A DNA stretch of 62,843 nt, taken from positions 64,001 to 126,843 of the IMG/VR virus record IMGVR_UViG_3300021963_000042; one strand, given 5' to 3'. The position numbers and the translations under genes are program-made. Below the pieces are notes generated by a model that was not told the DNA's origin, did not search any database, and was given only the letters and a program-made list of their open reading frames with translations. Of this stretch, positions 32,546 to 61,727 are shown one piece after another. The stretch is from a virus (lineage: Duplodnaviria > Heunggongvirae > Uroviricota > Caudoviricetes). Positions within the stretch are counted from its first letter, which is position 1. Each line of letters begins with the position of its first letter.

Positions 32546-32659
32546 AAAAATTCCTTTAAATTAAAAGTTAAACAGTCGCATATTAATGTCGTCACTTTAG
32601 TCAGTACAAGAGCCACAGGGCATCGGTTGCTAACATCGAGCAAAGACTTCACTAATTCG

Positions 32660-32977
32660 TGGTAGGTTATTCTGTTACGAGGAAACCTACCGAAACCCTA
32701 AGCAGCGTTTAGGCTGCTAATGCGTAGACAGAGTCGTTTGCATTTACTTTGTTTGCTTCTTCGACCGAGTTACCCCAATCCTAAAGGCTTTCGCATTGCC
32801 TAGTTGTCCACTTCTGTACTTGTTGCCCTGTCGAAACCTAGTCACCCCCATCAGAAACATACTATTCTTGATTTAATCAAGTGCCTTCGTTAGGGTCTGC
32901 AATAGTATGCTTTTGGTGGAGGTGGGGAGAATCGAACTCCCGTCCAGAACACTTTTCTAGTTGCTTCATACAACCAT
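32660..32977 (-). ncRNA. ssrA: Circularly permuted (two-piece) tmRNA, tag ANDSVYALAA*
   Basis: Minus strand order: acceptor piece with T-arm GGGAG-TTCGATT-CTCCC and CACCTCC-A-CCA (ends 32914); 64-nt intervening hairpin; GGGGGTG-ACTAGGTTTCGAC (starts 32849); tag 32741-32709. The acceptor stem contains G3:U70. The 3' end of the coding piece is approximate. Confidence 0.9.
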
Positions 32978-32983
32978 AAACTT

Positions 32984-33012
32984 ATTATACGCTAACAGTA
33001 TTTATATGTCAA
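32984..33012 (-). promoter_or_regulatory. Composite promoter for tmRNA: perfect TTGACA-17-TATAAT with T4 late TATAAATA in the spacer
   Basis: -35 at 33007-12, -10 at 32984-89, TATAAATA at 32999-33006. Confidence 0.8.
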
Positions 33013-52971: not shown

Positions 52972-53194
52972 CAGGATGTTGTTCTTTCATAACTTTTAAA
53001 AAATTAACCATCTTTTCTAGCACACTAAATCCGACGAGTTGTGGAACAAACGCATGAACAATCATAGCGAATCCCCACACAAACAAAGTAAGTGCAAACT
53101 TCAGCGCCCACCACATGTGTAGGAAATAGAACCACTTACTCTCAGATAAACGAGAGTACGTTCTGGCTTCATTCAGATGGTTTGGATGGAGCAT
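52940..53194 (-). CDS. Small membrane protein (DUF6356-like)
   Basis: HL.E....Y..HM..A.....L......IVHAFVP. Confidence 0.5.
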   Translation of the reverse strand: MLHPNHLNEARTYSRLSESKWFYFLHMWWALKFALTLFVWGFAMIVHAFVPQLVGFSVLEKMVNFLKVMKEQHPDDPILKKIDL

Positions 53195-53738
53195 AGTCTT
53201 TATCAAAATAATATAAGATGATGGATGTTGCATAGCACGCAGGTTTCTTTTTGTCTTGTATCTGCAGTACTTGGTCCCACCAAATTTTAACACCCAGTTT
53301 CTTCTCGGGATCTTCTTCGTCTAATATCCATTCCCACTTTTTGATGCTCACCAGTGCACGCACTTTTGAATCCACTGGCACAGGATTCGTGAACCTGACA
53401 TAATCTAGTCCGTAATTGATAACTAACTTAACGAACCTCATGTTGACAGCTCTACCGAGCAAAGATCCAAACATAGCAAGGCTGTAATAACCATGTGCGA
53501 TACTTCTATCGAAAGGATCTTCGCCGAACCCATGAGAAACCATTCCCATTCTGGATCTTATCTCTTCATCATCAGCTGTGTGAATCCACTGAGTGTCACC
53601 AGTGGCTTCGGCAAAGTGAACGATCTTAGGTTTGTCTATTGTGAAGAAATCGCTAACCCACTTGCGTCCAGATTTCATGTGAACATCTAGATCTTCTGGT
53701 TTCTCCACCACATAAACTTTTCTTCGCTGGCTATTCAT
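53169..53738 (-). CDS. MaoC-family dehydratase / (R)-enoyl-CoA hydratase
   Basis: FAEATGDTQWIH, IAHGYYSL, INYGLDYVRF.NPVPV.S.VRA. Confidence 0.88.
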   Translation of the reverse strand: MNSQRRKVYVVEKPEDLDVHMKSGRKWVSDFFTIDKPKIVHFAEATGDTQWIHTADDEEIRSRMGMVSHGFGEDPFDRSIAHGYYSLAMFGSLLGRAVNMRFVKLVINYGLDYVRFTNPVPVDSKVRALVSIKKWEWILDEEDPEKKLGVKIWWDQVLQIQDKKKPACYATSIILYYFDKDYAPSKPSE

Positions 53739-55890: not shown

Positions 55891-55898
55891 TATTTATA
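55891..55898 (-). promoter_or_regulatory. T4 late promoter TATAAATA
   Basis: Perfect consensus 28 nt upstream of the 55863 start, directly after a terminator. Confidence 0.75.
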
Positions 55899-56176: not shown

Positions 56177-56208
56177 AAAAAAAATCCCTGGAACCGAAAT
56201 TCCAGGGA
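56177..56208 (-). terminator. Intrinsic terminator
   Basis: 9-bp stem TCCCTGGAA/TTCCAGGGA followed by U8. Confidence 0.85.
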
Positions 56209-56219
56209 AATTTTTATTT

Positions 56220-56849
56220 TTATTTTATAAAGGTAAACAGAGACTCTAGAGGTTGCCTAACTTTCTTTTCATTAACCATCCAATCATTTTCTACATCTCT
56301 ATAACCTAAAGGAAGTAGTAAGACGACTTTACAATCATTCAAGTTCAAAATGCGTTCTACGTCTTGTACCTCAAAACCTTCTATCGGTGTGGCGTCTACA
56401 CCTTCCATCGCAGCAGCAATTAATGCCGTGCCGATGGCGATATATGTTTGCCTAGATGTATGTGTACTCTGAACATGTGGAGGCATAAGTGGCAATCTTC
56501 TCTTTAGACTTTCTCTATACTTCTCCAATTCAGGTCGAACGTAACCTCTCTCTTTATGAATTAGATCGTAAGCATTGTCTATCTTACCACCAGTATATCT
56601 GCCCCAAGCAGCAAATACAAGTAGATGAGAACAGTCTACAACTTGCGACTGGTTTCTTGCACTACTCATAATCTTTGCTTGTAACTCTTTGTCAGTTATA
56701 ACAAAGATATGATAAGGTTGAAGACCACTAGAAGATGGAGTTAGTCGTATCGCTTCCAAGATCCTGTCGATCTTTTCTTGATCGACAGGTTTGTTTTGGT
56801 CCATCTTCTTGGTGGCATAACGCCACCTCATCGCCTCAAGCAGATTCAT
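56220..56849 (-). CDS. Nitroreductase (NfsB-like NAD(P)H:FMN oxidoreductase)
   Basis: WRYATKKMD, IRLTPSSSGLQPY, NQSQV.DCSHLLVF, YIAIG..L.AAA..GVDATPIEGF, K.R.P. Confidence 0.9.
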   Translation of the reverse strand: MNLLEAMRWRYATKKMDQNKPVDQEKIDRILEAIRLTPSSSGLQPYHIFVITDKELQAKIMSSARNQSQVVDCSHLLVFAAWGRYTGGKIDNAYDLIHKERGYVRPELEKYRESLKRRLPLMPPHVQSTHTSRQTYIAIGTALIAAAMEGVDATPIEGFEVQDVERILNLNDCKVVLLLPLGYRDVENDWMVNEKKVRQPLESLFTFIK

Positions 56850-56850
56850 C

Positions 56851-57324
56851 TTATGCTGCTCGCATGTATGACTTGTACCTGTCTGCAGCATAACTTGCAG
56901 CGAATGCCTTTGGTTTAACCATAGGCACCACGTTGCACATACCACGAATGTAGCCAGTCGCTTCGTTGATAACACAAGAGCTGCCATGCATTTCGTTAGG
57001 GTTGATGTCCAAGTGAACTTCAACTTCTCTATCTTCTAACACATCGTGCAACTTCTGATACAACTCTGCAATCTTGTAAACTTCGTTCATTAGACGCATA
57101 CGTGGTCTGTCTCGTTTCTGATCCCAGTCACGTTCACGAACTACTTCACCGAAGATTTTACAGCCATTGTTACCATTGATATGAACAACAACAACCATAA
57201 TGTAATCTGCGTACCAATCATTTCCTATATTAAATCTTTCGGAATCCCCACCAATATAAATTTTAGTCTCTGGGGTTTGAGCCTCGATAAATGCTTTCAC
57301 TTCTTCAATATCGATTTTACGCAT
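56851..57324 (-). CDS. RNase H-like YkuK family protein
   Basis: KIYIGGDS, VVVH..G.NG.KIF, RL.NEV, EVHLDINP...GS. Confidence 0.75.
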   Translation of the reverse strand: MRKIDIEEVKAFIEAQTPETKIYIGGDSERFNIGNDWYADYIMVVVVHINGNNGCKIFGEVVRERDWDQKRDRPRMRLMNEVYKIAELYQKLHDVLEDREVEVHLDINPNEMHGSSCVINEATGYIRGMCNVVPMVKPKAFAASYAADRYKSYMRAA

Positions 57325-57353: not shown

Positions 57354-57427
57354 TGGAGCGGATAGAGGGAATCGAACCCTACTCTGCGCAGCTTGGAAGG
57401 CTGGCGACACACCTCGTGCTTACCCGC
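57354..57427 (-). tRNA. tRNA-Gly(TCC)
   Basis: Cloverleaf, loop CT-TCC-AA, GGTTCGATTCC T arm, CCA encoded. Confidence 0.9.
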
Positions 57428-57893
57428 AATTATTTGTTGTATACCTTAGTACAACTGATAGTCTCCTACCTTGTTTAACTAAATTCACTGAATGTGTATA
57501 CTTTCTCGTATCATTACCTGCAGGGAACAGAACGAATGTACCCTTTGGGCATTTTAATTGCATATTAAATGCATTAAAAACTAACTCACCACCATCATAC
57601 TCAGATGGGTCGTTCATGAATAAAATTCCTGTTTGCTTCCACTTGTAATCACCATCAAATGATAGACCATCAAAATGTGGAGTCATAGCAGAACCAACAT
57701 TGTATGTTAGAAACTCAAAACTGGATATTTCTCCAAACTTGACAGCTTCTTTATATACAGGTGGATAGGAGATACCACTAACTGTCTTCACATTCTGCTG
57801 GTTTGGGTAATCCTTCGCTTTAGAAATATCGATACTCGCAATGAGTTTATCGATGACTTCCTCACTCACCAGATTTGGAATTATCTTTATCAT
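57420..57893 (-). CDS. 2OG-Fe(II) oxygenase (prolyl-4-hydroxylase-like)
   Basis: Y.VG....PHFD...T.ILFMN....Y.GGEL.F...G..VLFP....H.V..V..G.R. Confidence 0.85.
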   Translation of the reverse strand: MIKIIPNLVSEEVIDKLIASIDISKAKDYPNQQNVKTVSGISYPPVYKEAVKFGEISSFEFLTYNVGSAMTPHFDGLSFDGDYKWKQTGILFMNDPSEYDGGELVFNAFNMQLKCPKGTFVLFPAGNDTRKYTHSVNLVKQGRRLSVVLRYTTNNCG

Positions 57894-58053
57894 CTTCTTT
57901 AAAAATAAGTTTAGCCGAACCAATAGTTCCTGGCATATCTAGCACCTGTTCTGATTTTTTATTCTTACCGAAGATCGTTTCCCAGCGATTGTCGAATTCA
58001 TCCTTACTCACTGCTAATGGTCTTGGTTTATCACCTTTACCGCCATCTGACAT
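57862..58053 (-). CDS. Small conserved phage protein
   Basis: MSDGGKGDKPRP...F..RW..IF. Confidence 0.65.
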   Translation of the reverse strand: MSDGGKGDKPRPLAVSKDEFDNRWETIFGKNKKSEQVLDMPGTIGSAKLIFKEDDKDNSKSGE

Positions 58054-58063
58054 ATAGTTCCTC

Positions 58064-58960
58064 TTATCTTTTTAAGTCGTATATTTCTCGTGCTTCATCA
58101 TAGTTGGCAATTTCACCGCCAAGATCTTTGATGATGCGAACTGCTTTCTGCACTAACTGAGCATTGGTCTCTGCCAACACACCCTTCTCAAGATATACAT
58201 TGTCTTCAATACCTACACGAACATGACCACCATACAACCATGTAGTTGCAACCATTGGCATTTCTTCTCTGCCGATACCGAATGCCGACCACAGAGCATC
58301 ATCTGGTAGCATGCTTTGATAGTAAGATATTGCTTGTGGTGTCGGCATAATACCATACTTAACACCAGTAGCAAATTGCCACAGAGGTTTACCAACAGTA
58401 AACAATCCCTGTGCTTCAAATTCTTTTGCCAGGAAGAAATCTCCAGAACCGAAAATCTCTAACTCAGGTTTGGTTCCAACTGACTGGATCATCTTCAACA
58501 TATCCTTAACTACATAAGGCATATTCATTCGGATGCGTTTTTGATCACCCTCGTTCATTGTGTTGAAGTCGATTGAACAGATGTCAGGTTTAATTTCCAT
58601 AACATGTCTAACTCTAGTTCTAGCATTTAACATGGTAGAGTTAGAAGTACCAGACATCATCCTAACAGATTCTGGGATAAACTTAGCACCTGGACCTGTA
58701 GTAAGGTTGATAATTAGTTTATCGTTCTGTTTTCTAATTAAGTTAACAGTTTCTTTATACAGTTCCAGATCAAAGCTGGAAGCACCAGTTGCAGGATCTC
58801 TAACGTGTAAGTGAACTACAGCAGCGCCAGCATCAGCAGATTCTAATGCAGATGTTGCGATCTGTTCTGGTGTAATCGGCAGATACGGAGTTTGTTCTTT
58901 CGTTGTAACACCACCAGTAATTGCGCAGGTTAAAACTGTTTTCTGTTTTCGTGTAATCAT
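58064..58960 (-). CDS. Beta-keto acid cleavage enzyme (BKACE/Kce, DUF849)
   Basis: LTCAITG...TPYLPITPEQIA..A.E...AGAAVVHLHVRDP, NLTTG, PDICSID..TMN, KPELEIF, GHVRVGIEDNVY. Confidence 0.93.
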   Translation of the reverse strand: MITRKQKTVLTCAITGGVTTKEQTPYLPITPEQIATSALESADAGAAVVHLHVRDPATGASSFDLELYKETVNLIRKQNDKLIINLTTGPGAKFIPESVRMMSGTSNSTMLNARTRVRHVMEIKPDICSIDFNTMNEGDQKRIRMNMPYVVKDMLKMIQSVGTKPELEIFGSGDFFLAKEFEAQGLFTVGKPLWQFATGVKYGIMPTPQAISYYQSMLPDDALWSAFGIGREEMPMVATTWLYGGHVRVGIEDNVYLEKGVLAETNAQLVQKAVRIIKDLGGEIANYDEAREIYDLKR

Positions 58961-59700
58961 ACTAAACCTCTTCCACCATCAATGGCGACAGTAATACCAG
59001 TTGTAAATCTGACTGTTGTTGCATATGCTTCGATCGCATTAGCAACATCTTCAGTGTTAGAACCACGACGTAAAGGAATCTTCATACCAGATTTAATCTT
59101 GTGGTCTTGAGAGAATCCTGAGAAGTTAGAATCTGTAACCACAGGTGGTGCGATTGCGATAACTCTAATCTTCGGAGCAAGTGCTCTTGCCAGATCTTTA
59201 GTCATACCATTGATGGCAGACTTAGATGCAGCATACATAATGTTACTACCATATCCCTTACCCTCTGCAGCACCTGATGATATATTAATCACCAATGCAT
59301 GATTGCTCTTTTTAAGTAGGGGAAGAAATGCTCTAGTGGTTGTGAACTGAGACTTTAGATTGACGCTAAGAATTTTATCAATCAACTCATCAGTCATTGC
59401 ATCTAGATTATGATGTTCAATGATTGTTGTCCAACCAGCATTATTAATCAGAATGTCACACTGTTCAATTTTACTTGCAACAGTGTTAATAGCAGAAGTA
59501 TCTGTAACATCTGCGATATACAGATGTCCCTTTATCGACTGATAGAAACTTCTAACAGAATCTTCATCTGTTCTGGCAATTCCGATAATATGTGCGCCCA
59601 GCTTATGTAGTCGCTTGGCAGTTGCTCTAGCAATTGCACCATTGGCACCAGTAATAACCACTGCTTGTCCAGACAGAGAACTCAATTTCTCAAATGACAT
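58957..59700 (-). CDS. Short-chain dehydrogenase/reductase (SDR)
   Basis: TGANGAIA, LINNAG, INISS, YAASK, IRV.AIAP, TG..VAIDGG. Confidence 0.93.
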   Translation of the reverse strand: MSFEKLSSLSGQAVVITGANGAIARATAKRLHKLGAHIIGIARTDEDSVRSFYQSIKGHLYIADVTDTSAINTVASKIEQCDILINNAGWTTIIEHHNLDAMTDELIDKILSVNLKSQFTTTRAFLPLLKKSNHALVINISSGAAEGKGYGSNIMYAASKSAINGMTKDLARALAPKIRVIAIAPPVVTDSNFSGFSQDHKIKSGMKIPLRRGSNTEDVANAIEAYATTVRFTTGITVAIDGGRGLV

Positions 59701-61126
59701 AACGATCCTTATAATATTGTTTCAAGACAACTTTATCTATTTTACCGCTACCAGTAGTTGGCATCTCATCAAGAAAAATAATTTTTCTTGGATGCTTATA
59801 AGCAGCAGTCTTACTTAGTATATATTCCTTTAACTGTTGTTCATCAACATCAGATGCAACAACAAATGCTACTGGGATAAAAGACTTTATCTCGTCTTCA
59901 ACTGCAATAACTGCAGAATGTTTAACACCTGCAACTTCTTCTAAGAGAGTTTCAATTTCAAATGGGTAAACGATGTTACCGCCAGATTTGAACATTTCAT
60001 CTGCTCTTCCTAAGCAGTAGTAGAATCCATTTTTGTCGACAGTAAATATATCTTTCGTATTATACCATCCATCATCAGAAACAACTTCATTAAACAATTC
60101 TTGTTTATTGTTGTATCCTTTCATGATAGAAGGTACTTTTATGTGAAGAACACTATCTACAAGTTTATATTCAACTCCTGATAACGGATACCCAACGCTA
60201 GTTGTTGGGATTGCTATCTTCTTTGGGTGAGAACCAAACATTCCTGGACCAGTTTCTGTAGTCCCATATGTTACAATAACTCTTGAATTTTTGAAGTAAC
60301 TTTTTATCTTATTGATTATAGATTCTGTAGTGATAGAACTGCCGATTCGAATTAGTCGCACAGAAGATAGATCTCTGTTTTCTATCGAAGAATCATTAAC
60401 CAATAAAGCCATTGCCGTGGTAATGGTTGGAATCAAATTGATTTTGTATTGATCAATCGCATCCAGTGCAAGTTTAGTGTTGAACTTATTTAATAGAACT
60501 ACAAGATTACCACGCTTTAATTGGATTTCAATATTGGCTAAAGCATTCAAGTGATAGAGTGGCGTCATCACCAACACTTTATCTTTCTTGAACGGATCAC
60601 CACCAGCATTAACGTGCATGTCAATAATCCAGTAATGATTTTTATGGGAGTATGCTACACCTTTGGGTACGCCAGTAGAACCTGATGTATACAGATATAC
60701 AGCAAGATCTGGATCTTGCACCATGTCAAAGTCACCAGCATCATAGAAAGAATCTATGTCTGACAGATTGACTGTGTTTACGTTGAACTTTTTATGGGAG
60801 GTTGTGAACAGTAGTTGTGATTTGCTGTCTGATAAAACATATTCAATCTGCTCATCAGTCATCTTGTCGTTGACCAATACAGCAATAACACCAGCCTTCA
60901 ATGCGCCATAATATGCAACTATGTAATTGAAACTATTTTCTGATAGTATAGCAATACATTGCTGTTGCTTTACACCAGCCTTAATTAAACCACGTGCGAA
61001 CCATGAAGACTTCTCATCTAAATCTCTATACGTATAGGTTTTATGTGGTGCGTTATCGCACACCTCAACGAGAAATTGTTTGTTCGCAAAGTTTTTATTG
61101 ATTACTGATGCTAAATTCATAGACAT
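59690..61126 (-). CDS. AMP-dependent acyl-CoA synthetase (class I adenylate-forming enzyme)
   Basis: YTSGSTGVPKG, PLYHLNA, YGTTETGP, GWYNTKD, GRADE.FKSGG..VYP.EIE, P.T..GKIDK. Confidence 0.93.
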   Translation of the reverse strand: MSMNLASVINKNFANKQFLVEVCDNAPHKTYTYRDLDEKSSWFARGLIKAGVKQQQCIAILSENSFNYIVAYYGALKAGVIAVLVNDKMTDEQIEYVLSDSKSQLLFTTSHKKFNVNTVNLSDIDSFYDAGDFDMVQDPDLAVYLYTSGSTGVPKGVAYSHKNHYWIIDMHVNAGGDPFKKDKVLVMTPLYHLNALANIEIQLKRGNLVVLLNKFNTKLALDAIDQYKINLIPTITTAMALLVNDSSIENRDLSSVRLIRIGSSITTESIINKIKSYFKNSRVIVTYGTTETGPGMFGSHPKKIAIPTTSVGYPLSGVEYKLVDSVLHIKVPSIMKGYNNKQELFNEVVSDDGWYNTKDIFTVDKNGFYYCLGRADEMFKSGGNIVYPFEIETLLEEVAGVKHSAVIAVEDEIKSFIPVAFVVASDVDEQQLKEYILSKTAAYKHPRKIIFLDEMPTTGSGKIDKVVLKQYYKDRYVI

Positions 61127-61131
61127 TCAAT

Positions 61132-61207
61132 TGGTGCCCCAAGAGAGACTCGAACTCCCGACCTTCGCATTACTAATGCGCTGCTCTACCAACTGAGCTA
61201 TTAGGGC
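61132..61207 (-). tRNA. tRNA-Thr(AGT)
   Basis: 76-nt cloverleaf; G1-C72, C2-G71; loop TT-AGT-AA; CCA encoded. Confidence 0.85.
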
Positions 61208-61209
61208 AT

Positions 61210-61719
61210 TTAATATTCACTTATTTTAACGTCTTTCAATGCTGCTACAGTTTCATCGTAAGATGCTTCTTTAACACAAAGACTTAAAATTATTCTTTCC
61301 TGATTAGACATGTTCATAACACAATGCTCATGTTTAACATTAAGAATAGTGGGTTTGTATAGTATATATTTCACTTCATCAAGTGTATAGTACAAAGATT
61401 TGTTTTCAACATCATCATAAAGTTTGGATCTATAAAAAGCACGTCCACCTGTATCATTGATTGGAAAATTTATAGAGCACTGTCTGACGTTTTTGTCAAT
61501 GTGCCAGTCATACAATGAGTTTGGTGGATTCTTAATCCATAACGCACTTACGTCGCCGATTAAATTCTTCAGCGACCTAATAAAATTAGAATTGTTAAAC
61601 ATAGTTCCCGCACGATAATCGTTTGGTGATACGTTTAATTTATAGGTAGCATTCATCCCTTCTTTGATGTATCGTGAAGATAGATCAGGAAAATGCTCTA
61701 AGCAATAATAATTTTTCAT
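61210..61719 (-). CDS. Putative 2OG-Fe(II) oxygenase / cupin-like protein
   Basis: YDWHID...SINFP...PTILNV...H.V.N.S...R.ILS; start trimmed to 61719 because the longer ORF overlaps tRNA-Ala. Confidence 0.65.
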   Translation of the reverse strand: MKNYYCLEHFPDLSSRYIKEGMNATYKLNVSPNDYRAGTMFNNSNFIRSLKNLIGDVSALWIKNPPNSLYDWHIDKNVRQCSINFPINDTGGRAFYRSKLYDDVENKSLYYTLDEVKYILYKPTILNVKHEHCVMNMSNQERIILSLCVKEASYDETVAALKDVKISEY

Positions 61720-61727
61720 TTTATCCT

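Follow-up and report, generated by a model that had tools for sequence, protein, structure and literature searches.

A predicted acid-CoA ligase, SDR and BKACE cassette recurring in large uncultured phages, and its candidate roles in CoA metabolism

Why should a T4-like phage carry, directly behind a tRNA gene, three genes for enzymes of carboxylic acid and CoA thioester chemistry, and what might these enzymes do during infection? The DNA analysed here (the window) comprises 62,843 nucleotides, positions 64,001 to 126,843 of the IMG/VR virus record IMGVR_UViG_3300021963_000042. The source contig is T4-like, 126.8 kb long and approximately 72% complete. The region around the three genes contains the following features:

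61210..61722, minus strand: protein of about 170 aa from a virus-only family, with an HxD...H cupin/2OG-oxygenase-like motif
61132..61207, minus strand: tRNA-Thr(AGT) (ARAGORN, Rfam)
59690..61126, minus strand: predicted class I adenylate-forming acid-CoA ligase, 478 aa (AMP-binding and AMP-binding_C, E 3.5e-62)
58957..59700, minus strand: classical SDR, 247 aa (Pfam adh_short, E 1e-37, 130 bits)
58064..58960, minus strand: BKACE, 298 aa (PF05853, full-length, E 1.2e-88, 297.5 bits)
57862..58053, minus strand: ORF of 63 aa directly after BKACE (ORF list; no family match)
57420..57923, minus strand: small 2OG-Fe(II) oxygenase, 167 aa (PF13640, E 2e-08; phrog_61)
56851..57324, minus strand: RNaseH_like phage protein (PF04308; phrog_11311)
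56220..57023, minus strand: nitroreductase-family protein (PF00881, E 2e-21; PRK11053 over residues 59-266; phrog_18935)
56185..56208, minus strand: terminator-like hairpin with a 10-bp stem, followed by T8
55934-55909: second terminator-like hairpin, beyond 56208-56185, between the module and the downstream operon
53169-53738: MaoC-domain protein, R-hydratase-type, 4 kb from the module

All three genes of the trio are intact. Ligase and SDR overlap by 11 nt (59690-59700), SDR and BKACE by 4 nt (58957-58960), and the description in the earlier note of three overlapping genes with complete catalytic motifs is confirmed, as is its stretch 58064-61126, which the trio fills exactly. With dN/dS values of approximately 0.03-0.13, each of the three genes appears to be under purifying selection.

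The phage character of the surroundings was likewise borne out, as the window also encodes baseplate, tail and gp32-like proteins and the gene of the Gp23 capsid protein lies on the same contig. The GC content of the module (0.36-0.41) is like that of the rest of the phage; the loci of Limnohabitans and Variovorax range from 0.51 to 0.66. The trio had been placed between tRNA-Thr(AGT) and tRNA-Gly. The tRNA-Thr side of this statement stands, while a tRNA-Gly was found neither downstream of the module nor anywhere in the 126.8-kb contig by ARAGORN, Rfam or blastn with the tRNA-Gly of relatives; a tRNA-Gly(GCC) is present only in the relatives L001 and L002. The 3′ end of tRNA-Thr(AGT) lies 5 nt from the ATG of the ligase gene, so that any ribosome-binding signal of the ligase would overlap the tRNA 3′ end. 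The "T4 late promoters" said to flank the module could not be upheld: TATAAATA occurs twice in the window, no more often than by chance, and neither copy is located upstream of the module.

Directly upstream of the ligase, in the window as well as in L001 and L002, lies the cupin-like protein of about 170 aa (cluster 43), of which a longer TTG-started frame reaches 61770 and would overlap tRNA-Ala. This protein (61210..61722) is without a match in Pfam, NCBIfam or PHROG, and the Atlas clusters nearest to it consist of viral proteins (100%); among named families, 2OG-FeII_Oxy_3 and Asp_Arg_Hydrox come closest with scores of only 0.90, and its identity as an oxygenase is hence no more than a lead. 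On the other side of the trio, the 167-aa 2OG-Fe(II) oxygenase (70% identical to its L001 homologue) is a putative member of the same transcription unit on the same strand. The nitroreductase and the MaoC gene mentioned in the earlier note are both present nearby; the true start of the former is probably near 56850, since its family matches begin at about residue 59. A terminator scan of the minus strand from 62400 to 56208 displayed one weak 5-pair site only, and the hairpin at 56185..56208, the first strong terminator-like site downstream of the tRNA array on this strand, likely terminates the transcription unit of the module.

With an incomplete contig that ends 1.7 kb from the module, the question of the module's authenticity is answered by relatives. 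A complete relative (170,832 bp with terminal repeats, rated 100% complete) carries the same trio internally, with homologous genes on both flanks, which indicates that the window is not a chimera. Sequence identity to the counterparts in L001 and L002 amounts to 60% for the ligase, 67% for the SDR and 81% for the BKACE. The trio is also found in Gp23-positive jumbo phages of 206 kb and 345 kb. It thus resides inside a bona fide phage genome, has phage genes on both sides and recurs in related phages, as expected of a phage auxiliary metabolic gene (AMG) set. Host contamination, against which the earlier note had argued from the phage context, is contradicted as well by the complete relative and the phage-like GC content.

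In a quick tree of BKACEs, 31 viral and 2 bacterial sequences form one clade (SH-aLRT 99), the sister of which comprises 76 bacterial sequences from loci where an SDR-BKACE pair stands beside a ring-cleaving dioxygenase. A ligase gene is adjacent in 20 of the 33 phage-clade loci versus none of the 76 bacterial-clade loci; three further phage-clade loci have a divergent ligase nearby, and two more a ligase at a distance of 8-10 kb. In 62 of the 76 bacterial loci the SDR-BKACE pair occurs without any ligase. Conversely, 27 of 28 IMG/VR matches to a ligase profile were located on BKACE contigs (a scan of IMG/VR with the single ligase sequence gave no match, and the profile scan succeeded). In three contigs, a natural 721-aa ligase-SDR fusion precedes BKACE. 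The trio enzymes travel together across divergent phages and form phage-dominated lineages, and judged by sequence the trio is a conserved viral metabolic module that recurs in many large uncultured phages. A virus-only lineage was considered and rejected, as clade member L103 comes from a 504-kb bacterial contig, on which it is surrounded by genes for UvrA, PBP1, Lon and ClpX; with two members in bacterial genomes, one of them in a clearly chromosomal context, the cassette is not exclusive to viruses. The weak points that the earlier note had itself named (a chimeric assembly, inactive enzymes, no co-occurrence in related phages) did not materialize at the sequence level.

The earlier statement that BKACE is not a commonly cited phage AMG is in line with its absence from 50,697 GenBank phage records, from the PHROG families and from the phage descriptions found in the literature. 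Megablast of the region against GenBank phages gave no match either, and tblastn with ligase and SDR gave matches of at most 35% identity; several of these records bear bacterial organism names or host-type annotation, and those matches were left out. Metagenome proteins that are 60-89% identical do exist.

The ligase has both AMP-binding domains and all core motifs of an ANL class I acyl-CoA ligase. The P-loop TSGSTGxPKG, YGxTE, TxD, GRxD and the catalytic C-terminal Lys462 are conserved in 20 phage-clade homologues, in which T147, S148, G149, T151, P154, K155, E291, T357, D359, G373, R374, D376 and K462 are invariant or nearly so. None of the NCBIfam equivalog cut-offs is reached, among them those of MenE (245 bits, cut-off 330), FadD, MatB and benzoate-CoA ligase, the best match being PRK06187 (296.5 bits, cut-off 476) and PRK07514 reaching 205 bits (cut-off 558). 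The nearest Atlas cluster is 93% viral, which places the ligase in a virus-dominated family by sequence. Loading of a carrier protein by the ligase was considered for the T4-like lineage and discarded, as no PP-binding (carrier protein) gene was found in this genome (G000) or in the complete relative (G001); a small gene beside the ligase in some loci encodes, judged by sequence, a membrane protein and not an ACP.

The SDR displays the motifs of classical SDRs (glycine motif TGANGAIA, LINNAG, ISS and YAASK). SDRs of the phage clade have Arg, not Asp, after strand beta2 and are probably of the NADP(H) type. The protein matches the FabG-like family phrog_3142 and remains below the FabG equivalog cut-offs (120 bits vs 298).

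BKACE covers positions 1-274 of the 274 profile positions of PF05853 at a score far above the cut-off (24.8 bits), and lies below all named NCBIfam equivalogs. Its AF2 model (pLDDT 88) is predicted to be a TIM barrel like the solved BKACEs, with Foldseek TM scores of 0.90 to 3C6C and 0.82-0.85 to 8RIO, 8RIP and 2Y7D; by sequence, the closest solved structures are 9ZSC (BsfD, E 8e-80) and 3C6C (E 7e-71). Residues His50, His52, Glu252, Glu166, Glu168, Arg248 and Asp253 are invariant in 118 BKACE homologues. All of these except Asp253 align with the zinc ligands and catalytic residues given for Kce (His46, His48, Glu230, Glu143, Arg226) and PdKce (Glu171, Arg254). An active-site Tyr (Kce Tyr145, PdKce Tyr173) is thought to contact the CoA sulfur, a role that is unsettled in the literature. 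This Tyr is replaced by Phe170 in the phage BKACE, as by Phe166 in BsfD and by Phe in 3C6C. The phage enzyme would most likely convert a 3-keto acid and acetyl-CoA to acetoacetate and acyl-CoA.

The earlier note had proposed the order acid activation, redox step, BKACE. This order appears unlikely, because canonical BKACEs act on free beta-keto acids, with acetyl-CoA as co-substrate (PMC6365646, PMC11961710, PMC10470551). Instead, we hypothesize, with roughly even confidence for and against, a genuine auxiliary metabolic cassette that selection keeps in large aquatic myoviruses and that operates where free carboxylic acids and CoA thioesters meet. In this scheme, the SDR would interconvert a 3-hydroxy acid and the matching 3-keto acid. 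The zinc-dependent BKACE would transfer the C2 (carboxymethyl) unit of the free 3-keto acid to acetyl-CoA, yielding acetoacetate and an acyl-CoA two carbons shorter. The ligase, presumably an addition of the phage lineage to an older SDR-BKACE pair, would activate a free acid at the expense of ATP, the acetoacetate by-product being the most economical candidate. A host thiolase would then regenerate acetyl-CoA; the host is invoked because the phages encode none (no thiolase in G000, G001, G007 or G008). On balance, an organic-acid pool of the host would be converted to CoA thioesters, with a gain of reducing equivalents, in the course of infection. In many jumbo phages a DctP-type carboxylate-binding protein is encoded beside the cassette; among the 33 phage-clade loci, 17 have a DctP-like gene or that of its partner enzyme no more than 8 kb away, and in this genome the pair is at G000:58162-60232.

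This scheme follows the deoxyribonate and phloroglucinol routes, where pairs of dehydrogenase and BKACE oxidise and cleave 3-hydroxy acids and the acetoacetate is re-activated (PMC6365646, PMC10470551). The phage ligase could take the part of the acetoacetate-recycling synthetase, but at equivalog level it matches neither the known acetoacetyl-CoA synthetases nor a named ligase of any other kind. A deoxyribonate pathway proper is rated low, since the context is devoid of its transporter, lactonase and kinase, and host fatty acids or PHA may be tapped, as suggested in the earlier note. Three observations fit the scheme less well. The NADP(H)-type signature of the SDR would be no less compatible with a reductive, biosynthetic direction; BsfD, the closest solved homologue, does not perform the canonical cleavage and shares its Phe with the phage enzyme; and the ligase-SDR fusion suggests that ligase and SDR act on neighbouring steps, unlike in the scheme.

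The first of these observations speaks for a rather unlikely biosynthetic alternative, in which an acyl-CoA supplied by the ligase is condensed with acetoacetate by BKACE, giving acetyl-CoA and a 3-keto acid longer by two carbons, and the NADPH-type SDR reduces this 3-keto acid to a 3-hydroxy acid as phage building block or effector. It would agree with the position of the ligase as first gene and phage-specific addition, with the surroundings of the cassette, which in several phages include further tailoring enzymes, 2OG oxygenases and desaturases (a desaturase is near in 4 loci), and with measurement of the BKACE reaction in reverse (PMC11961710). However, the physiological BKACE routes in the cited literature run towards cleavage, BsfD excepted (PMC6365646, PMC10470551). 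Moreover, the cassette lacks a consistent genomic association with any enzyme that would use the product. There are also enzymes that oxidise 3-hydroxy acids with NADP+, such as E. coli YdfG. It is conceivable, albeit improbable, that cassette, leaderless DctP-type protein and partner enzyme together serve to produce a small molecule in infected cells instead of consuming one, either a 3-hydroxy acid or a BsfD-like beta-diketone, via Claisen-type C2 exchange.

BsfD-like chemistry, in which the DUF849 enzyme C-acetylates a 3-keto acid and decarboxylation leads to a beta-diketone, would give a small bioactive molecule instead of a CoA ester, and we regard it as quite unlikely. Among solved structures 9ZSC matches best, both enzymes have the long beta3 loop and the Phe, and Lys93 of this phage aligns with BsfD Arg91. 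However, Phe170 also occurs throughout the bacterial dioxygenase-linked clade and in 3C6C, and is hence not diagnostic of the BsfD type, and position 93 varies in the phage clade (T, L, V or K). A search of G000, G001 and G008 for PEP mutase gave no match, which argues against a phosphonate pathway.

The fusion would also fit a branch in which BKACE-derived acetoacetate is activated by the ligase to acetoacetyl-CoA and then reduced to 3-hydroxybutyryl-CoA by the SDR as a PhaB-like NADPH reductase, as ligase and SDR would then catalyse consecutive steps. The NADP(H)-type motif, the occurrence of the acetoacetyl-CoA reductase 4KMS among the FabG-like PDB matches of the SDR, and the MaoC gene 4 kb away are in favour of this branch, which nevertheless seems quite unlikely to us: PhaB does not resemble the SDR more than many other FabG-like enzymes do, a MaoC gene is present in no more than 4 of the 33 loci, and the ancestral SDR-BKACE pair, ligase-free in most bacterial loci, suggests that the substrate of BKACE is what the SDR works on.

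The earlier note had further linked the trio, as acyl-donor source, to a "late tailoring operon", so that trio and downstream oxygenase/double-methyltransferase/MaoC genes would form one long pathway. In this phage and in L001-L003 one set lies next to the other, but the two terminator-like hairpins and the downstream operon's own TATAAATA separate them, and a methyltransferase, like MaoC, is found in 4 of the 33 phage-clade loci only, which makes the connection highly unlikely. Host contamination, assembly chimera or a recently captured, decaying moron, to which solely the position near the contig end would lend itself, can practically be dismissed in view of the internal location in the complete relative, the phage-like GC content, the deep viral clade, purifying selection and the retention of all catalytic residues.

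Returning to the preferred reading of a selected auxiliary cassette, BKACEs perform an unusual CoA-dependent exchange of C-C bonds. The phages appear to own a deep, phage-dominated BKACE lineage under purifying selection, with an acquired ligase that is sometimes fused to the SDR, ranging from T4-like phages of about 170 kb to jumbo phages of 345 kb, and the cassette would define a new class of viral metabolic module. Identity of the substrate would reveal which host carbon pool is tapped, or which compound is made, by abundant freshwater-type phages, and might also account for the cytoplasmic DctP-like binding proteins that these phages carry as orphans. If true, the small-molecule-making reading would amount to a phage-encoded biosynthetic route, e.g. 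to an antimetabolite, a signal or a modification precursor.

Like the fatty-acid desaturases of cyanophages and other lipid or carbon AMGs, the cassette consists of host-like enzymes in hypervariable regions of large aquatic myoviruses; unlike these, it comprises three enzymes, one of which exchanges C-C bonds and is without counterpart in PHROG or GenBank phages. Among bacterial systems, Pseudomonas simiae and Paraburkholderia use an SDR and BKACE module in oxidative deoxyribonate degradation (PMC6365646), and phloroglucinol degradation employs a hydroxy-oxohexanoate dehydrogenase and a triacetate acetoacetate-lyase (PMC10470551). In both, as in the phages, a dehydrogenase gene adjoins a DUF849/BKACE gene, and the expected logic is the same (oxidation of a 3-hydroxy acid, cleavage with acetyl-CoA to acetoacetate and acyl-CoA, re-activation of acetoacetate). 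The phage cassette differs in being phage-borne and in having a class I ligase, at times fused to the SDR, and it lacks transporter, lactonase, kinase, CoA-transferase and thiolase.

Fold, zinc site and catalytic Glu and Arg are shared with Kce of lysine fermentation, in contrast to an overall identity of about 32%, Val18 at the position of Kce Glu14 and Phe170 at that of Tyr145. Kce Glu14 binds the 5-amino group of the substrate (PMC10470551), and the score for the Kce equivalog NF052387 is below its cut-off (227.7 bits, cut-off 382). BsfD (PDB 9ZSC), the DUF849 enzyme of flavophos biosynthesis in Burkholderia (bioRxiv 10.64898/2026.01.15.699783), shares with the phage enzyme the zinc ligands, the long loop that follows strand beta3, and the Phe. 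The Arg91 with which BsfD binds the phosphonate lacks conservation among the phage-clade enzymes, the phage enzyme is accompanied by ligase and SDR, and PEP mutase was not found in the three phage records searched. The closest fold, as judged from the model, is RaKce (PDB 3C6C, Reut_C6226; TM 0.90). Likewise comparable are the operons of the bacterial sister clade in Burkholderiales and Bradyrhizobium (LacI / intradiol-dioxygenase / SDR / BKACE / MDR / cupin / TctC), with BKACEs approximately 50-56% identical to those of the phages and sharing SDR-BKACE adjacency and loop length. In these ligase-free ring-cleavage loci Arg93, Asn17, Val144 and Thr195 are invariant, whereas in the pocket of the phage clade the invariant Arg93 has given way to a variable residue, Gln195 has become invariant, and a ligase is present.

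The cassette lies in a linear IMG/VR virus record of 126,843 bp, of which the window forms the last 62.8 kb. The record has a capsid gene of T4 type (Gp23) and a CheckV completeness of ~72%, and the window itself encodes baseplate, tail and gp32-type proteins like those of T4. ORF calling places an acyl-CoA ligase, an SDR and a cleavage enzyme for beta-keto acids (BKACE, DUF849) on the minus strand, in exact agreement with the coordinates of the earlier note. The ORFs of ligase and SDR overlap by 11 nt, those of SDR and BKACE by 4 nt.

Features of the cassette and its surroundings:
59690-61126, minus strand: ligase, 478 aa, AMP-binding and AMP-binding_C domains
58957-59700, minus strand: SDR, 247 aa, adh_short domain
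58064-58960, minus strand: BKACE, 298 aa, full-length match to PF05853 (E 1.2e-88)
61132-61207, minus strand: tRNA-Thr(AGT), CCA encoded, 3' end 5 nt from the ligase ATG
53169-53738: MaoC-domain gene, in the next transcription unit downstream of that of the module
56851-57023, minus strand: 173-nt overlap of the nitroreductase frame (267 aa as listed) with an RNaseH-like gene

A tRNA-Gly, formerly named as the other flank, is found nowhere in the contig; tRNA-Gly(GCC) occurs only in relatives. A Shine-Dalgarno-like GGGG for the ligase, if any, falls within the acceptor stem of tRNA-Thr(AGT) (61127-61207 region), and 3' processing of this tRNA would make the ligase mRNA nearly leaderless; in relatives, the junction upstream of the ligase is without tRNA. 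Since every family match of the nitroreductase begins near residue 59, its true start probably lies ~170 nt downstream of the TTG. [quoted passage not shown]

The same trio in the same order is present in two ~170-kb IMG/VR contigs, with 60% (ligase), 67% (SDR) and 81% (BKACE) identity to the window. Both flanks are homologous there, including a ~170-aa upstream ORF, a 226-aa oxygenase (87–92%) and a 483-aa double methyltransferase (64–65%), and one of these contigs, with direct terminal repeats and a completeness rating of 100%, contains Gp23. An assembly chimera is thus not supported. GC content of the module (0.36–0.41) equals that of the phage, as compared to 0.51 in a Limnohabitans locus and 0.66 in a Variovorax locus. 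A profile scan of IMG/VR yields 50 BKACE loci, ~30 of them with ligase, SDR and BKACE. Trio-bearing records with Gp23 include one of 206 kb and another of 345 kb with a completeness rating of 94%; the remaining ones are fragments, for which CheckV completeness implies genomes of ~170–450 kb. The complete relative and the larger Gp23-positive records bear out the view that the module genuinely resides in phage and recurs in related phages. That BKACE is uncommon as a phage auxiliary gene likewise stands: no match was obtained in 50,697 GenBank phage records, no PHROG family exists for it, and no literature connecting BKACE to phages was found. The cassette is real and conserved in phages, a new phage-specific arrangement of known enzyme families.

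In both ~170-kb relatives the interval from tRNA array to cassette also holds a 490–510-aa DUF2828 and DUF7788 protein (L001:2751-4283, L002:2938-4404), which is absent from the window, whose end falls in the tRNA array. In L002, ARAGORN labels a tRNA with CTA anticodon (1822-1897) as tRNA-Pyl, possibly an amber suppressor inside the array.

All three enzymes are intact. By alignment, BKACE residues His50, His52 and Glu252 are counterparts of the zinc ligands in the solved homologues Kce and BsfD, and Glu166, Glu168 and Arg248 of catalytic residues; all six are invariant among 118 homologues. The AlphaFold model is a TIM barrel (pLDDT 88, TM 0.90 versus 3C6C). The ligase displays P-loop, YGxTE, TxD, GRxD hinge and C-terminal Lys, the SDR displays NNAG and Ser-Tyr-Lys. 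Compared with two close relatives, dN/dS is 0.03–0.13 for all three genes, at dS near saturation.

A quick maximum-likelihood tree of 118 BKACE sequences groups 31 viral and 2 bacterial members into one clade (SH-aLRT 99), the latter refuting a strictly viral clade. Its sister clade comprises 76 bacterial rows (Variovorax, Limnohabitans, Polynucleobacter, Paraburkholderia, Bradyrhizobium; ~50–56% identical), in which SDR and BKACE neighbour a LacI regulator, an intradiol dioxygenase, a zinc-ADH-like reductase, a cupin and TctC. A linked ligase (at least 30% identity, at most 3 kb away) is found in 20 of 33 phage-clade rows versus none of 76 in the bacterial clade; in three further phage rows a divergent ligase lies two genes off, and in two more a ligase lies 8–10 kb distant on the same contig. 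Conversely, 27 of 28 IMG/VR matches to the ligase profile lie on BKACE contigs, and the nearest Atlas cluster of the ligase is 93% viral. Three contigs from different samples (L010:5830-7995, L011, L012) encode a 721-aa ligase-SDR fusion directly upstream of BKACE.

One bacterial member of the phage clade (L103) lies on a 504-kb contig among UvrA, PBP1, Lon, ClpX and GshA genes, the other (L098) stems from a Pseudobdellovibrionaceae MAG. In both bacterial genomes (~37% GC) the cassette holds SDR, ligase, BKACE, a DctP-like protein and its partner. The module may be common to predatory bacteria and phages. In one phage sub-lineage (L027-L031), BKACE has neither SDR nor ligase nearby and is flanked by a ClpP protease gene on one side; on the other comes a truncated DctP-like gene, after which the ~415-aa partner enzyme is encoded in several copies.

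A DctP-type binding protein or the ~415-aa partner enzyme occurs within 8 kb of the cassette in 17 of 33 phage-clade loci, and the genome of the window has such a pair at 58162-60232 of the full record, with the DctP-like protein at 59270-60232, up to 84% identical to a jumbo-phage copy. This recurrence hints at a common carboxylate linking cassette and DctP-type protein. Of the 33 loci, only 4 combine the cassette with methyltransferase and MaoC genes, which are best read as a module apart.

The T4 late promoters formerly thought to flank the module are not recovered: TATAAATA occurs twice in the window, which is not above chance, and neither copy precedes the module. One (55891-55898) belongs to the MaoC unit, which two terminator-like hairpins set apart from the module unit; the other (32999-33006) marks the 5' end of a permuted two-piece tmRNA (32618-33006, minus strand; tag ANDSVYALAA). 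This tmRNA matches the betaproteobacterial model; the match and the affinity of the BKACE relatives to Burkholderiales are hints that the host is a betaproteobacterium. Since scanning the minus strand from the tRNA array reveals no strong terminator before the hairpin at 56208-56185, the module is probably co-transcribed with the tRNAs, the small oxygenase, the RNaseH-like gene and the nitroreductase.

Canonical BKACEs act on a free 3-keto acid and acetyl-CoA (PMC6365646, PMC11961710). The best-supported scheme runs from SDR via BKACE to ligase: the SDR would interconvert a 3-hydroxy and a 3-keto acid, BKACE would yield acetoacetate and an acyl-CoA, and the ligase would activate a free acid. 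The most economical candidate for this acid is acetoacetate, because the phages searched contain no thiolase or CoA-transferase-like recycling and would depend on the host. We keep alive three rivals, namely biosynthesis in the reverse direction, a route to a diketone and a PhaB-like branch, which jointly draw on the kinship with BsfD, the ligase-SDR fusion and an NADP(H)-type cofactor signature (by sequence rule, phage-clade SDRs having Arg, not Asp, after strand beta2). Loading of a carrier protein is less likely than a CoA ligase role, because no carrier protein was found in the full record or the complete relative. The originally proposed order of activation, redox and BKACE step is unlikely, as canonical BKACEs take free 3-keto acids.

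Among solved structures, BsfD (9ZSC, E 8e-80) is the nearest homologue, with 3C6C next. BsfD transfers an acetyl group to a 3-keto phosphonate, and the adduct decarboxylates without cleavage; the enzyme has Phe at the canonical BKACE Tyr site, and its long loop behind strand beta3 contains Arg91. For the phage BKACE a phosphonate route is excluded, as PEP mutase was found neither in the full record nor in the complete relative nor in a further phage record (G008).

Residues of the BKACE phage clade and its bacterial sister clade:
Canonical Tyr site: phage Phe170; bacterial Phe
Loop after beta3, residues between positions 89 and 116: phage 21–28 (27 in 17/33); bacterial 27 in all
Position 93 (BsfD Arg91): phage T, L, V or K (Lys in the window phage); bacterial Arg (78/78)
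Position 195: phage Gln, invariant; bacterial Thr
Position 144: phage Arg or Thr; bacterial Val
Position 17: phage Ala, Gly or Ser; bacterial Asn

Phe170 is not a marker of BsfD-type chemistry, because the bacterial clade and 3C6C have it too. In Kce, Glu14 binds the substrate amino group (PMC10470551), whereas the phage BKACE aligns Val18 to this site. Judged by this replacement and by the differences between the clades, the predicted substrate of the phage BKACE is neither a lysine-pathway amino acid, as in Kce, nor the presumably anionic one of the bacterial clade.
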